A stretch of 64,000 nt of DNA from a virus: positions 214,014 to 278,013 of the IMG/VR virus record IMGVR_UViG_3300028558_000016. The stretch is one strand, 5' to 3'. The position numbers and the translations under genes are program-made. Shown one piece after another: positions 51,422 through 58,160 of the stretch. The notes under the pieces are model-generated. The model saw only the letters and a list, made by a program, of their open reading frames with translations, made no database searches and was not told the DNA's origin. How positions within the stretch are numbered: position 1 is the first letter of the stretch; each line of letters begins with the position of its first letter.

Positions 51422-51988
51422 ATGAAATACGTAAAACTATTCGAGGGATTTCTCTCTGAAAAAGAATCCGACGAAGAAGTAGACAGCTTCGGCAACAAGA
51501 AGAAAAAGAAAAAGGATGAAGAGGATCCCGGCACTGTTCTTTCCAATACTACTGGAATTGTTACTGCAATGGAAGTAACTGAAGCTAAAAATGAGGACAT
51601 CAGCAAATGGGACGACAAGAGAGTTAATAAAATCTATGGATATTACTTAGATGGATTGTCAAACGCAGAAAGAGAAACAGAAGAGAAAAAGAAATTAAGC
51701 GTTGACAAGAAACGTGAAGTGTTGAAGAAGCAACAAGTTAAATTCGAAAAACAGTTCGAGGGATTTCTCTCAGAAGCTGAGGTAAATGAAAACAAAAACA
51801 CGTATCCTTCACATTGGACAAAAGATGATGTAATCACAGTCAATGCCATAAAAATTTCTTTGGAAGATTATGAGAGTCAAGGAGGAAAGATAACAAAGAC
51901 ATTAATAAAAGATTCCATAAAGGAATTTAAAGTTGATGCAAAAATTAAAAACGAAGTTCAATCGGAATTAGAAGGGATATATTTATAA
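51422..51988 (+). CDS. CTS-motif protein (MKYVKLFEGFLSEKE), motif duplicated internally (KQFEGFLSEAE)
   Basis: 188 aa; first gene of the contiguous motif cluster. Confidence 0.55.
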   Translation: MKYVKLFEGFLSEKESDEEVDSFGNKKKKKKDEEDPGTVLSNTTGIVTAMEVTEAKNEDISKWDDKRVNKIYGYYLDGLSNAERETEEKKKLSVDKKREVLKKQQVKFEKQFEGFLSEAEVNENKNTYPSHWTKDDVITVNAIKISLEDYESQGGKITKTLIKDSIKEFKVDAKIKNEVQSELEGIYL

Positions 51989-52650
51989 TGACTACAACCT
52001 ACTCATACGGACCGTTAAAGAGCGACTACTTTTCTCAGTATGAGAAGATGTGGATAGAGGGCTTTTGTAAGGAAAACAAGATTGAACTCTCTGAGTCCAA
52101 TGTTTGCACAACCCTTTCAACCATTTTAAAAGGAAAGAGTCCAGAAACGGTTAATGTAAAGATCAAGGCCTTGATTACCGAAGCTGAGAAGTTCTCAAGC
52201 TATTCAAAAGACATGTTCATCAAATCATGGAACAACATCCTTGGATTCACGATGAGCACTGTAAAGCCAAACGGAACAATATCAGAGAATCAAAGAGAAT
52301 CGATGAAGCTTACAAATGCTTATTGGCTTATGGAAGCTCCAAAGATCATGTCGCAAGAAATGCAATACGCATACTTCAAGAGCTTAGTAATAGAATGCCT
52401 ATCTGAAAATGGAAAAGCATTGAATGAATTAAAGGATTTCAATCCAGCTAAACCAAGCAGAATAGTTGAGAACGCAAAAACATATTTCTCTTATGAGAAG
52501 GTGAAGATGAAATTTCCACCATGCAGCATAAGAACAGAAGAGATAAGAAAGAATGAGGTAGCATTAAACATGATACCAGAAGCTGAGAAGATTATTGCTA
52601 TGATCTCGTGGACAGCCGAGACAACAAAACTCATGTCAATGTTCAAATGA
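51988..52650 (+). CDS. hypothetical protein (no CTS motif)
   Basis: 220 aa. Confidence 0.55.
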   Translation: MTTTYSYGPLKSDYFSQYEKMWIEGFCKENKIELSESNVCTTLSTILKGKSPETVNVKIKALITEAEKFSSYSKDMFIKSWNNILGFTMSTVKPNGTISENQRESMKLTNAYWLMEAPKIMSQEMQYAYFKSLVIECLSENGKALNELKDFNPAKPSRIVENAKTYFSYEKVKMKFPPCSIRTEEIRKNEVALNMIPEAEKIIAMISWTAETTKLMSMFK

Positions 52651-52961
52651 AACACGTAAAACTATTTGAAGATCATAAACTCGACGAAGTAACAAGCGCC
52701 GAGATATGGAAAGCAGTTGACCAGGCACAGCTCGACGAATACGAGAAGAGCGGACCTAAGGAGTTAACCATCGGAGACATGGAATATAAGATAAACAAGT
52801 ATTGGATGAACGAGAATGACGTCCCTTCGCTTGAGGTGGTCAACAAAGATACAAACAGCGTTCATTATGTTCAGCTGGCATTAGTATGGAGCGGATATGT
52901 TAATTGGAGCGCATTGGGTCCAAAGGAAAGAGAAGAACTAAGACAAAAATATTTATCGTAA
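52647..52961 (+). CDS. CTS-motif protein (MKHVKLFEDHKLDE)
   Basis: Start at ATG 52647 (ATGA overlap) rather than track 52608. Confidence 0.5.
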   Translation: MKHVKLFEDHKLDEVTSAEIWKAVDQAQLDEYEKSGPKELTIGDMEYKINKYWMNENDVPSLEVVNKDTNSVHYVQLALVWSGYVNWSALGPKEREELRQKYLS

Positions 52962-53133
52962 CACTTTAAAACAGAAGTATGTCATTCAATAAGATTTATC
53001 TAAGAGATTTAAAAGAAGTAAAGAAAGAATTTTCAGAAGACCCTCAAGGGTTCAAAAGAAGAATGACAAAGGCGGATGCCTTGATAGGACCGGTAAGCTC
53101 GGTAAGGTTCGTGGAAAAAGTAATGAAAACAAA

Positions 53134-55950: not shown

Positions 55951-56380
55951 TAATTTCATAAACGAAGAAGCTTCAACGTTGATTCCTGTAGTGAGATGGG
56001 CATCAAAGAAATACACCGCAGAAGAGTTGAAGCCTCAGAAGTTTGATTGGGGAGGATTCGAATCATTCGGTCTTTGCTTCACTCCTTTTAATGGTATGGA
56101 AGATCCAAGGATAAACTTCTGGAAGAAATTATTACAGAAGCATCACAACAAGGAATTGGTTGCTAATTTTTATTACCTCGATCTTTCCGACTTCCCGTTG
56201 AAGTCAGAAGCAGCATTGGTTGATTTCGCAAAGCTTACATATAATTCATTGAAGGCTGAACGAATGATGAAGACTGATTATAAGATACACATGACTCTGA
56301 CGAATGACTTTGGAACGGCACAGCTCGTTGAGATAAGATTATTGGAAGGTTGCACCATAAAAATATTGGACTACAAGTGA
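55931..56380 (+). CDS. CTS-motif protein (MKIKRFNNFINEE)
   Basis: 149 aa. Confidence 0.5.
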   Translation: MKIKRFNNFINEEASTLIPVVRWASKKYTAEELKPQKFDWGGFESFGLCFTPFNGMEDPRINFWKKLLQKHHNKELVANFYYLDLSDFPLKSEAALVDFAKLTYNSLKAERMMKTDYKIHMTLTNDFGTAQLVEIRLLEGCTIKILDYK

Positions 56381-57162
56381 AGAAGATAAAAACATATAAC
56401 AATTTTCTATTAGAAAAAAAGATGGAAGCCTTTGTTGAGATTGCTAAACGCAACAACATGACAGAGGACTGCATGCATCTCGTTGTTTGGTGGGGACTAA
56501 CCGGATATTTATATTACCACGGATTGCATGATAAGAATCCACCGATCACTAAAGAAGGAAAGAGAATGCTTAAAGTAATTTTTGATTCAGTGGTGAACGG
56601 AACTTATTCCGATTACATGAACCAAAGAATAACAGCAGAAGACGAGGATAACGATCCAATAGTTATGGAAGAAAACGTCTATAAGCAGATGGGAAAGAAT
56701 TACATTGATGACACGTTCAATGCCAACCTTGTTGAATTGAAACACCCAATTAAAGTTTTCAAGGATTATTCCAAAGACAGATTTGTGACTGGAAAAGATA
56801 CTGCATGGTATTCATTCTCTGTAATAAAGGGGAGAGACCAAAACGCTTACGGAGATGCTTATATCTGTTACGAGCTTCCAGCAGGATTCAAGTATCTCGA
56901 TACAAGAGGCCTTGCAGAAAAAGGAGAGATACTCATAGACGGCAAAGACTTAACAGATGACATGATAATAAGCAATTCAAGCGAGATGAAGATAGACCTT
57001 AAGAAAGGCGATGAGATATTAACTGGCAAGTGGCAGAACAAACATGATGAGGTTAAAAAGGTTGGAAAGAATGAATTAGGCCAACCAACTATAAATGGTA
57101 AACCAATGTTGAAGTTCAGAATAAAGAGATTGATGCCAAAGAAAAAGAAGTCTGAAGAATGA
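56377..57162 (+). CDS. CTS-motif protein (GTG start: VKKIKTYNNFLLEK)
   Basis: GTG 56377 overlaps upstream TGA (GTGA); motif KTYNNFLLE closely parallels T4 CTS MKTYQEFIAE. Confidence 0.5.
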   Translation: MKKIKTYNNFLLEKKMEAFVEIAKRNNMTEDCMHLVVWWGLTGYLYYHGLHDKNPPITKEGKRMLKVIFDSVVNGTYSDYMNQRITAEDEDNDPIVMEENVYKQMGKNYIDDTFNANLVELKHPIKVFKDYSKDRFVTGKDTAWYSFSVIKGRDQNAYGDAYICYELPAGFKYLDTRGLAEKGEILIDGKDLTDDMIISNSSEMKIDLKKGDEILTGKWQNKHDEVKKVGKNELGQPTINGKPMLKFRIKRLMPKKKKSEE

Positions 57163-58160
57163 GACGCATAAAGCTATATGAAGAATTTGTCGTTCAACTC
57201 AATGAGCTGAACGCAAGTCCTTATTTCTGGAGATGGGACACCAACAAGACTGCAAAGTTTGAATCGCCTGACGATACTTACGAAGTATTCTTCTTTAAAA
57301 CCAAAGACGACAACACATACATAGCACATTACGAATCAAAGAAATACGGAACAAACAAATCAGGACCTGGATCAACAGGAAATGCAATGAGAGTTCTTGC
57401 AACTGTAATGGACATCATAATAGCTTTCCTTGATCAGTTTCCTGAATACGACGTTGAATTCGTAGGAGACAAAGAAGAAGACGAGAAAGATGGTCCAACC
57501 AAGAGAGACAGAATATACAAGATGATGATGCAAGATCTTCCAGACAATTACAAATGGGAACTCGCATCAGACAAGAAAACAATTCACATAAGCAGGCAAC
57601 ACGTTTACGAAGACGTTAGCGGAATTGGTGGTGAAACATTCTACCATGGATCAACTGACAAGAATTTAGCTGGTCACAAGGGATTGCATGTAGGAACTCG
57701 TGAGGCAGCAAAGGAAGCTCTTGAAGCAAGGATAGGAGTTCCAGCTGAAGGAGAATGGGATGGAACAAGAGAATATGGAAAGACTCTATTAGCAGGACAA
57801 GACAGATTGAACAAGATAGAGAAGGAAGAAAAAAGATATGTGGCAACAGGTTTCAATTGTGGAAGCGATGTGCCAAAAGAAGATTACTATCCGACAGACA
57901 GAAAGGAAAAAGCAACATACAGCGATGAGTCTGTTGTTCCAATGAACTGCAAGCCAATAATATTTCCAGTTAAAATAGTCGGTCACATGACAAACACGCC
58001 TCAGCATCCATTGAGCGATTCCAAAGCGAATGGATTGATGAAAAGAAGCTTGACGGCAGGAAATGCTAAGAGCGGATTCTATTACAAGAACATCGGAGAG
58101 GACGAAGGGTCTATATCAGCTGTCGTTCCGGATAAGTCTTTCTTGAAACTTACCACTTAG
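57159..58160 (+). CDS. CTS-motif protein (MRRIKLYEEFVVQLNE) with PARP/diphtheria-toxin-like ADP-ribosyltransferase signature
   Basis: FYHGSTDKNLAGHKGLHVG parallels PARP HGSRTTNFAGILSQGLRIA; downstream RYVATGF (Tyr) and YSDESVV (cf. YNEYIVY catalytic Glu). Confidence 0.55.
   Translation: MRRIKLYEEFVVQLNELNASPYFWRWDTNKTAKFESPDDTYEVFFFKTKDDNTYIAHYESKKYGTNKSGPGSTGNAMRVLATVMDIIIAFLDQFPEYDVEFVGDKEEDEKDGPTKRDRIYKMMMQDLPDNYKWELASDKKTIHISRQHVYEDVSGIGGETFYHGSTDKNLAGHKGLHVGTREAAKEALEARIGVPAEGEWDGTREYGKTLLAGQDRLNKIEKEEKRYVATGFNCGSDVPKEDYYPTDRKEKATYSDESVVPMNCKPIIFPVKIVGHMTNTPQHPLSDSKANGLMKRSLTAGNAKSGFYYKNIGEDEGSISAVVPDKSFLKLTT

Follow-up and report, generated by a model that had tools for sequence, protein, structure and literature searches.

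A T4-like candidate capsid-targeting leader on otherwise unrelated proteins of an uncultured huge phage

Introduction

The capsid targeting sequence (CTS) of the internal proteins IPI, IPII and IPIII of phage T4 was reportedly described by Mullaney and Black in 1996 and by Repoila and colleagues in 1994. It is the sole thing common to the internal proteins of T-even phages; the first ten residues of IPIII are enough for packaging, residues 4 and 7 being the main determinants of targeting and residues 8 and 10 those of processing, and the protease gp21 cleaves after L/I-x-E, the longest T4 propeptide having 65 residues (PMC9026906). In the T4 sequence MKTYQEFIAE, the functional residues are accordingly Tyr4, Phe7, Ile8 and Glu10. 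Here we describe an N-terminal motif of the same layout in a stretch of 64,000 nucleotides of viral DNA (IMG/VR record IMGVR_UViG_3300028558_000016, positions 214,014 to 278,013; hereafter the window), where it opens most genes of a cassette at positions 51422-58160. As judged by the sequence comparisons given below, this 13-residue N-terminus is rather probably a T4-type capsid-targeting propeptide, the cargo behind which would be freed in the head and ejected with the DNA.

The genomes of huge phages contain hundreds of genes without an assigned role, and the group to which this stretch belongs has no cultured member. Should the leader serve to load proteins into the capsid, those that enter the host with the DNA, ahead of all phage gene expression, could be picked out by a simple sequence rule, and the set so marked should hold candidate anti-defence and host-takeover enzymes. 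The T4 targeting principle, which is already in use for engineering T4 as a protein-delivery vehicle, would in that case extend far beyond the T-even phages.

Results

A common leader at the protein level

The cassette consists of ten close-set genes, all on the plus strand, eight of which begin M-[KR]-x-[IV]-K-x-[FY]-x-x-[FYH]-[ILV]-x-E, that is, with the unit basic-x-[IV]-K-x-aromatic-x-x-aromatic-[ILV]-x-Glu. The original prediction, made from the sequence alone, had counted nine such genes in a run broken only at 51988..52650; the number is eight of ten, because both 51988-52650 and 52979-53137 are without the motif, the second of these breaks having been missed. The eight start positions that it listed do open reading frames with the N-termini quoted, and the public gene calls on identical contigs give the same eight starts, including the GTG at 56377, for products of 188, 104, 155, 376, 402, 149, 261 and 333 amino acids (aa). 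Purely as a sequence match, the pair [FY]-x-x-[FYH] stands at about residues 7 and 10 in all eight cassette leaders, and in all eight it is followed by [ILV]-x-E (LSE, LDE, LNE, ILE, ISE, INE or LLE) at residues 11-13 or, in the 57159 protein, by LNE at residues 14-16, three residues later than in the others. An [L/I]-x-E tripeptide had been predicted merely nearby, within 8-14 residues of the motif; the tripeptide is present, but it keeps a fixed phase inside the motif, apart from the shift in the 57159 protein.

The strict core [FY]xx[FYH][ILV]xE begins in the first nine positions of 6 of the 107 genes of the window, compared with 0.53 expected from its internal rate in the window proteins (P = 1.9e-5), which corresponds to an N-terminal excess of about elevenfold. 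Four further leader genes lie in the window outside the cassette, starting at 3612, 6348, 6536 and 7794, and the presence of eight of the twelve within ten consecutive genes has a hypergeometric probability of 6e-8, or about 6e-6 when corrected for window positions.

The leader is conserved at the level of the protein, as is evident from its synonymous codon variation and from the lack of conservation in the DNA upstream: identical leader residues are encoded by the same codon in only 52% of cases, and the 30 nucleotides before the start are 30% identical. A DNA-level recombination or promoter element was ruled out on these grounds. Also ruled out was a paralogous family with a common first helix, the cargo parts being unrelated. 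Once the first 16 residues are removed, no pairwise similarity exists among the eight cassette proteins; similar pairs number 4 among 41 proteins, and a larger set of 259 proteins falls into 174 similarity groups.

Likeness to T4 and the head module of relatives

The layout aromatic-x-x-aromatic-[IL]-x-Glu is identical in the window motif and in the T4 CTS, and the likeness is thus closer than had been claimed, targeting and processing residues sharing one layout. The same layout is found in the T4 capsid protein gp23, in which F59-G-S-F62-L-T-E65 is followed by A66, and the maturation cut of which we take to lie after E65.

The closest public relative of the window is LR756500.1, a complete genome of 462 kb (UvsX 39% identical; core proteins approximately 35-40%), the head genes of which were found by phmmer with T4 head proteins; a Pfam scan of 149 of its open reading frames (ORFs) for a prohead protease was uninformative, with 25 of the 95 matched families listed. 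Three adjoining T4-like head genes are located at 225025-230346 (loci L169 and L176). These encode a portal protein (E = 7e-30 to T4 gp20), a 632-aa protein beside it, the N-terminal domain of which matches T4 gp21 (E = 7e-11) with His85 and Ser140 aligned, and, in the gene after the protease, a gp23-like capsid protein (E = 7e-11 to T4 gp23). His85 and Ser140 are the catalytic residues of gp21 (PMC12991175). The gp21-type protease, which is also found in 21 further IMG/VR loci (L177-L197), is fused in LR756500.1 to a scaffold-like tail that contains three copies of the motif (YVKYVAE, YMEHIAE and YTQYVKE), while 4-7 copies per tail are present in its 17 IMG/VR homologues that were recovered as the fused protein, against an expectation of about 0.1 as estimated from amino-acid composition. 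In one of these loci (L178), a leader gene lies directly 3' of the protease-scaffold gene. In this clade, M-x-x-[LQ]-I-N-E-[AS]-E is the start of the capsid proteins and ..L-L-[VI]-L-E-[RK]-S that of the proteases, the latter resembling the LLIE of T4 gp21, and by their sequence both starts look like short propeptides.

A gp21-type protease (S77 family) is absent from the 64-kb window. Just upstream of the cassette, the gene 50043..50984 (plus strand, 313 aa) encodes a protein with an N-terminal DUF6378 domain and, in its C-terminal half, four motif copies of the form aromatic-x-x-Tyr-[LV]-Ala-Glu (WKEYVAE, YAKYLAE, YQEYLAE and YIEYVAE). Its residues ~198-305 match the tail of the gp21-type protease-scaffold protein, with E = 3e-4 for LR756500.1 and E = 4e-6 to 5e-4 for twelve IMG/VR loci. 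On this similarity, the product is probably a scaffold-associated component of the prohead core, and the region of interest should probably start at this gene. Since the 50043 protein and the protease tails both repeat the motif, the leader looks like one unit of the scaffold's repeat.

As the processing enzyme, the original prediction had put forward the ClpP-like protein encoded at 22428..23072. This gene is a poor candidate because it is placed among replication genes, beside neither a head module nor the cassette, and a gp21-type protease encoded outside the window is the better one. The 22428-23072 product is a stand-alone Clp-family protease (PF00574, E = 2e-31) with an 80-residue low-complexity N-terminal extension; its gene adjoins part A of the DNA polymerase (23373-24836), the rest of that stretch consisting of replication-type and unassigned genes, and LR756500.1 has two Clp-family protease paralogues.

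The leader as a separable module

The C-terminal domain of the 57159 protein, here called FYHGST, is highly conserved in 344 database proteins. Among 120 listed homologues, most are about 190 aa long, the domain being preceded by 12-31 additional N-terminal residues; these extensions fall into the classes MKHIKLFESF.., MELRKFIATTIREYLNES.., MKLTKILE.., MDIRKAIRSVLQES.. and ..NKQRLFEIM..; many of these extensions finish in [IL]-x-E followed by Ser or Ala. The occurrence of at least four alternative extension classes on one cargo domain (P0003-P0120) suggests lineage-specific variants of the tag, and in related contigs genes with other cargo have the same leader class as their neighbours. Judged by these comparisons, the leader is a separable module that tracks the phage lineage and not the cargo.

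A similar modularity is seen in the family of the 54742 protein, in which the leader and a conserved N-terminal module are followed by the junction K-L-K-K-S-M-L-x-L-E-S and then by differing C-terminal domains. In one homologue (P0121), the C-terminal domain is a leaderless cassette cargo, assigned to the eighth protein (57159) or to the sixth (55931), with 75% identity (E = 7e-83), and the fusion begins at the residue right after the end of that protein's leader. In the two structure models (57159 and 54742 proteins), the leader is a low-confidence helix that stands detached in front of the folded domains. A 2H-phosphoesterase cargo protein is present without any leader in the cultured Maribacter phage Molly. 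Four genes of the same phage (L160; Maribacter phage Molly_1, 107604-118982) have another common N-terminus, M[DK]T..IKS[ML][IV]ES...[AE]IVE, which may reflect paralogy or another kind of shared leader.

Distribution among phages

IMG/VR was scanned with a degenerate nucleotide pattern encoding M-K-[YH]-x-K-L-[FY]-E-[DE]-F, which matched more than 118 stretches, and in 130 of the 132 cases among the matches listed the motif peptide is preceded by Met. At residues 11-13, which the pattern did not cover, 54 of the 114 listed leaders have [ILV]-x-E, compared with 1.7% expected. Position 12 is Asn in 44% of them, conservation stops after residue 13, the residue that follows is mostly Ala, Lys or Ser, and the leader codons vary synonymously.

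Deposited phages that show the leader repeatedly are solely the uncultured huge phages LR756500, LR756502, LR756504 and LR745206. In LR756500.1, 45 of 690 ORFs are leader-like by a loose filter and about 35 look genuine; these leaders are of a lineage-specific variant, MKYIKEYEEFILE, and occur mostly in cassettes. Cassettes of differing content are found in L003, L075, L037, L038 and LR756500.1, and 5-11% of the genes of carrier genomes have a leader (12 of 107 in the window). A blastn search with concatenated leader codon variants returned only uncultured huge phages and chance internal matches, for example in Staphylococcus phage Machias. In the cultured jumbo phage PTm1 (Tenacibaculum, a Bacteroidota host), 150 of 225 kb of which were scanned, 3 of 216 ORFs pass a loose filter and none resembles a genuine leader. 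Because this comparable phage is without the leader, the motif is not a generic start context; the modest share of tagged genes in the window points the same way, and the original prediction, which had named such a generic feature as the finding that would undo it, holds in this respect.

Genes and cargo domains

In the order of the cassette, with a slash marking the putative cleavage point, the first leader protein (51422..51988, 188 aa) starts MKYVKLFEGFLSE/KE and continues with an acidic, Lys-rich spacer, then KQFEGFLSE/AE (residues 112-118) and a 64-aa C-terminal domain; family searches with this protein gave no match. It is followed by the leaderless gene 51988..52650 (220 aa), the first break in the run, by the second leader protein (52647..52961, 104 aa; start MKHVKLFEDHKLDE/V) and by the leaderless ORF 52979..53137 (52 aa), the second break, which is present in the public gene calls. 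The cargo of the third leader protein (53134..53601, 155 aa; start MKRIFSYDSFLNE/S) has a helical, coiled-coil-like look, its family matches being weak and of coiled-coil type only. The fourth (53609..54739, 376 aa; start MAKRFHNFEEFILE/S) has a second motif copy (WFSNFLTE, residues 48-54) and hydrophobic helices at its C-terminus, with weak PHROG matches to tape-measure families (phrog_1272, E = 1e-4). The last four are encoded at 54742..55950 (402 aa; start MKRIKRFESYISE/S), 55931..56380 (149 aa; start MKIKRFNNFINE/E), 56377..57162 (261 aa; GTG start, (V)KKIKTYNNFLLE/K) and 57159..58160 (333 aa; start MRRIKLYEEFVVQLNE/L).

The leader genes outside the cassette, likewise on the plus strand, are 3612..3845 (77 aa; start MGLKKFEDFEHHLAE/E), 6348..6536 (62 aa; start MKHIKLFEEFKIDE/A), 6536..6958 (140 aa; start MEHLKDFNIFE/AE, with a motif-like copy, KKIKDFEDFINGEE, near the C-terminus) and 7794..8222 (142 aa; start MGIKRYSDFVNVNE/K). 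Internal motif copies are present in the 51422, 53609 and 5764 proteins and, four times, in the 50043 protein. Two internal copies are followed by Ala-Glu, KVLNFNDFIFE/AEE in the 5764-6348 protein and GGFDFDLYITE/AE in the 10065-10706 protein; these could be internal processing sites or gene fusions.

The 54742 protein is composed of a conserved N-terminal module (APLYHT...), the junction KLKKSMLTLE/S (approximately residues 283-298) and a Tpt1/KptA-like C-terminal domain. The match of the latter to the RNA 2'-phosphotransferase Tpt1 in the PDB (8tfz) is weak, with E = 0.002 over 60 residues; the protein also matches phrog_5470 (E = 1.5e-4) and, in a tblastn search, Streptococcus phage genes annotated as RNA 2'-phosphotransferase (E = 4e-11). 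A search for relatives in viral contigs gave no match, and the structure model of the C-terminal domain, with a predicted local distance difference test (pLDDT) score below 50, is too poor for use, the fold search with it being uninformative. Some homologues stop exactly at the junction. Variable C-terminal domains behind a conserved N-terminal module are typical of delivered effectors such as polymorphic toxins, which the architecture of the 54742 protein resembles, and from its sequence the junction may be an internal cleavage site.

The 57159 protein contains a GNAT-like domain at about residues 25-146, assigned from weak fold matches, and the highly conserved FYHGST domain at 160-333. Two members of the cassette had been predicted to be ADP-ribosyltransferase-like; the 54742 protein retains a weak Tpt1/KptA match in that direction, while for the FYHGST domain of the 57159 protein no ADP-ribosyltransferase match was obtained in Pfam, PHROG or PDB sequence searches or by fold. 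Although the 57159 protein was modelled with confidence (pLDDT above 90), the model has no PDB fold matches at E <= 0.001, and neither it nor the model of the 54742 protein gave a significant PDB match. PF18760 was found only in longer FYHGST homologues that have an extra domain. The FYHGST domain also occurs inside giant polyvalent proteins of 1000-3700 aa together with LPD1 and LPD5, a class that Iyer and colleagues describe as being co-injected with the DNA (PMC7824862). The Pfam families that occur most often in 139 leader proteins are leucine-rich repeats (LRR), 2H phosphoesterase/Acb1-like, GNAT, ATP-grasp, metallopeptidase and ankyrin, a predicted cargo repertoire that suggests host manipulation and counter-defence.

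Genome context

The window codes for a family-B DNA polymerase in two parts, a UvsX-like recombinase, a Clp-family protease and collagen-like tail fibres; one further product weakly matches topoisomerase II. A megablast search with 24 kb of the window against phage records gave no match. The best UvsX matches are in uncultured huge phages of 462-735 kb and in Lak megaphages, and the 57159 protein is recorded from a 482,156-bp contig; on these grounds the window is taken to belong to a huge phage genome. Two genes about 17 kb apart, 23373-24836 and 41717-42931, encode the family-B DNA polymerase. Directly past the cassette are a SiaC-like gene (PF09345; 58879-59265, minus strand) and a gene for a collagen-repeat tail fibre (60078-62198), which mark a switch to structural genes.

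Discussion

Proposed route of the tagged proteins

In the explanation that we favour, the amphipathic leader would mimic the repeat unit of the phage's own scaffold (aromatic-x-x-aromatic-[ILV]-x-Glu), and from this likeness it is proposed that the leader-tagged proteins are built into the prohead together with its scaffolding core. A prohead serine protease of the gp21 type, presumably encoded elsewhere in the ~480-kb genome, would then cut after the Glu at position 13, and the same enzyme may cut the internal motif copies and junctions such as KLKKSMLTLE/S, so that the cargo would be freed within the head and would pass into the host together with the DNA. The 50-58 kb region could accordingly be described as a cassette of interchangeable pre-packaged effectors, among them a Tpt1-like enzyme as well as a GNAT-like domain and one that polyvalent proteins also contain, lying beside the scaffold-repeat protein 50043-50984. 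We infer scaffold binding, cleavage, virion presence and ejection, and likewise the existence of a gp21-type gene in this phage. The earlier proposal of capsid-internal, host-injected effectors survives with respect to the T4 layout, the head module of the relative and the modular leader; it has lost the role given to the ClpP-like protease and the second ADP-ribosyltransferase.

Several observations weigh against this explanation. The gp21-type protease, scaffold and capsid genes were found in a relative with only ~35-40% core-protein identity and not in the window; cultured phages with the leader were sought and none was found (PTm1, Molly, blastn); and the motif also occurs inside a few proteins that have no obvious link to the virion. 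Moreover, position 13 is not Glu in some lineages (for example MKYLKLFENFTDI in L003), and certain short homologues have the leader set directly against the domain, which means that cleavage after residue 13 cannot be universal. A short amphipathic helix ending in Glu could also serve a different interaction. Finally, the packaging of 5-10% of all genes would imply a very large internal proteome, although by analogy with the internal load of SPN3US this seems plausible.

Alternative explanations

The leader might instead serve a target other than the capsid, whether a place or a partner: its proteins could be exported, could go to a membrane or to a replication compartment, or could be recognised by a protease (the ClpP-like one of the phage or a ClpXP-type machine of the host) for timed degradation or activation. 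It is true that a ClpP-family protease is encoded in the window and two in LR756500.1, that LRR and ankyrin cargo is typical of secreted effectors, and that a detached N-terminal helix, as predicted in the models, would suit targeting tags of many kinds. We regard such a destination as unlikely, however, given that the gp21-type prohead protease has three to seven copies of the motif in its scaffold-like tail, that the leader ends in the cleavage signature of this very protease family and that it matches the maturation site of the T4 capsid protein; the ClpP-like gene, for its part, lies among replication genes, away from cassette and head module, and the leader is too little hydrophobic for a Sec or membrane signal. 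A variant closer to the favoured explanation accepts targeting to the prohead but not delivery, the tagged proteins being accessory parts of the scaffold or of an internal body that are degraded and expelled after cleavage or are kept with the DNA for packing. Such a structural role would agree with the resemblance of the leader to the scaffold repeat, the scaffold-like 50043-50984 protein, the helical or highly charged nature of the 51422 and 53134 proteins and the leader gene that follows the protease-scaffold gene in L178. It is nonetheless quite improbable, as Tpt1-like, GNAT-like, Acb1-like, LRR and ankyrin cargo has no evident structural use, the FYHGST domain is shared with polyvalent proteins thought to be injected, and C-terminal domains that vary behind a conserved module are what delivered effectors typically have.

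The least credible of the alternatives, which we consider very improbable, denies the leader any targeting role and sees in it either a context for translation initiation or N-terminal stability in A+T-rich Bacteroidota phages, or a DNA segment that promotes recombination and shuffling of the cassettes. The genomes are A+T-rich (24-40% G+C), with A/T-rich leader codons, and the cassettes are highly plastic; yet the aromatic, aliphatic and Glu positions are kept through synonymous codon changes while the upstream DNA has no conservation, the A+T-rich jumbo phage PTm1 of a Bacteroidota host has no leader, only 5-11% of the genes in carrier genomes have one, and the motif recurs inside scaffold proteins, where initiation is irrelevant.

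Wider implications

Beyond the window, we put forward tentatively, as a possibility, that a whole group of uncultured huge phages with T4-type heads may use a universal 13-residue, scaffold-mimicking tag to load dozens of effectors (5-10% of their genes) for co-injection, including degraders of immune signals such as Acb1-like phosphoesterases. If this is true, the tag alone would identify from sequence the injected 'first-strike' proteome of hundreds of uncultivated phages, and the lineages would have co-evolved pairs of tag and scaffold, the mimicry of the scaffold repeat suggesting a way in which the tag recognises the prohead core. In a literature search of incomplete coverage, these huge phages were not connected with capsid targeting sequences in any paper, and the leader strings had no match there.

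Comparison with known systems

Entry into phage heads through N-terminal parts is also a property of the MuF-type polymorphic toxins of temperate phages and of the Dar antirestriction proteins of phage P1, and the C-terminal effector domains of MuF proteins vary as in the 54742 family; there is no homology to these systems, however, and the targeting element in the window is a 13-residue tag instead of a folded domain. In phiKZ, 201phi2-1 and SPN3US, tens of proteins are packed into the head and have propeptides that are cut after Glu in a three-residue motif by the gp21-like gp175/gp245. The phiKZ-type cleavage sites are S/A/G-x-E. These phages belong to unrelated lineages, the head genes of the window's relatives being closer to those of T4, and for their inner-body and ejection proteins no common N-terminal leader has been described.

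The large polyvalent proteins with LPD domains, which belong to phages and conjugative elements (Iyer et al., 2017), share with the window the FYHGST domain and a repertoire of GNAT, 2H phosphoesterase and ADP-ribosyltransferase type, whereas the window proteins are separate polypeptides of 104-402 aa with their own leaders, in which no LPD domain was found. The T4 protein Alt, a packaged and injected ADP-ribosyltransferase processed by gp21, resembles the 54742 protein in that the latter has a predicted domain of the ADP-ribosyltransferase superfamily, which would modify host components; no homology between the two was detected, the Tpt1-like match being weak (PDB E = 0.002). Processing of Alt takes place at both termini, and the internal proteins listed with the targeting sequence do not include it (PMC9026906).

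The closest parallel is provided by IPI, IPII and IPIII of T4, which have the same short propeptide with two aromatic or hydrophobic residues at i and i+3 followed by [I/L]-x-Glu, and which, like the window proteins, comprise unrelated cargo encoded in plastic cassettes. A gp21-family protease and T4-type portal and capsid proteins are moreover common to T4 and LR756500.1. The differences are nevertheless considerable: the leader has 10 residues in T4 but 13 here, with a basic M-K-x-I-K prefix; the cargo of the window has no sequence similarity to the T4 internal proteins and is mostly made up of enzymatic or repeat domains; the protease of the window's relatives, unlike that of T4, has a fused scaffold-like tail with repeats of the motif; and packaging is here a prediction from sequence. 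Tagged genes are also far more numerous than in T4, with 12 in the 64 kb of the window and approximately 35-45 in the 462-kb genome of LR756500.1. While the targeting principle itself is thus known from T-even phages, its 13-residue version in uncultured huge phages appears to be new, as do the tens of tagged genes per genome, the effector-like cargo, the alternative tag classes on one and the same cargo and the apparent mimicry of a protease-fused scaffold repeat.

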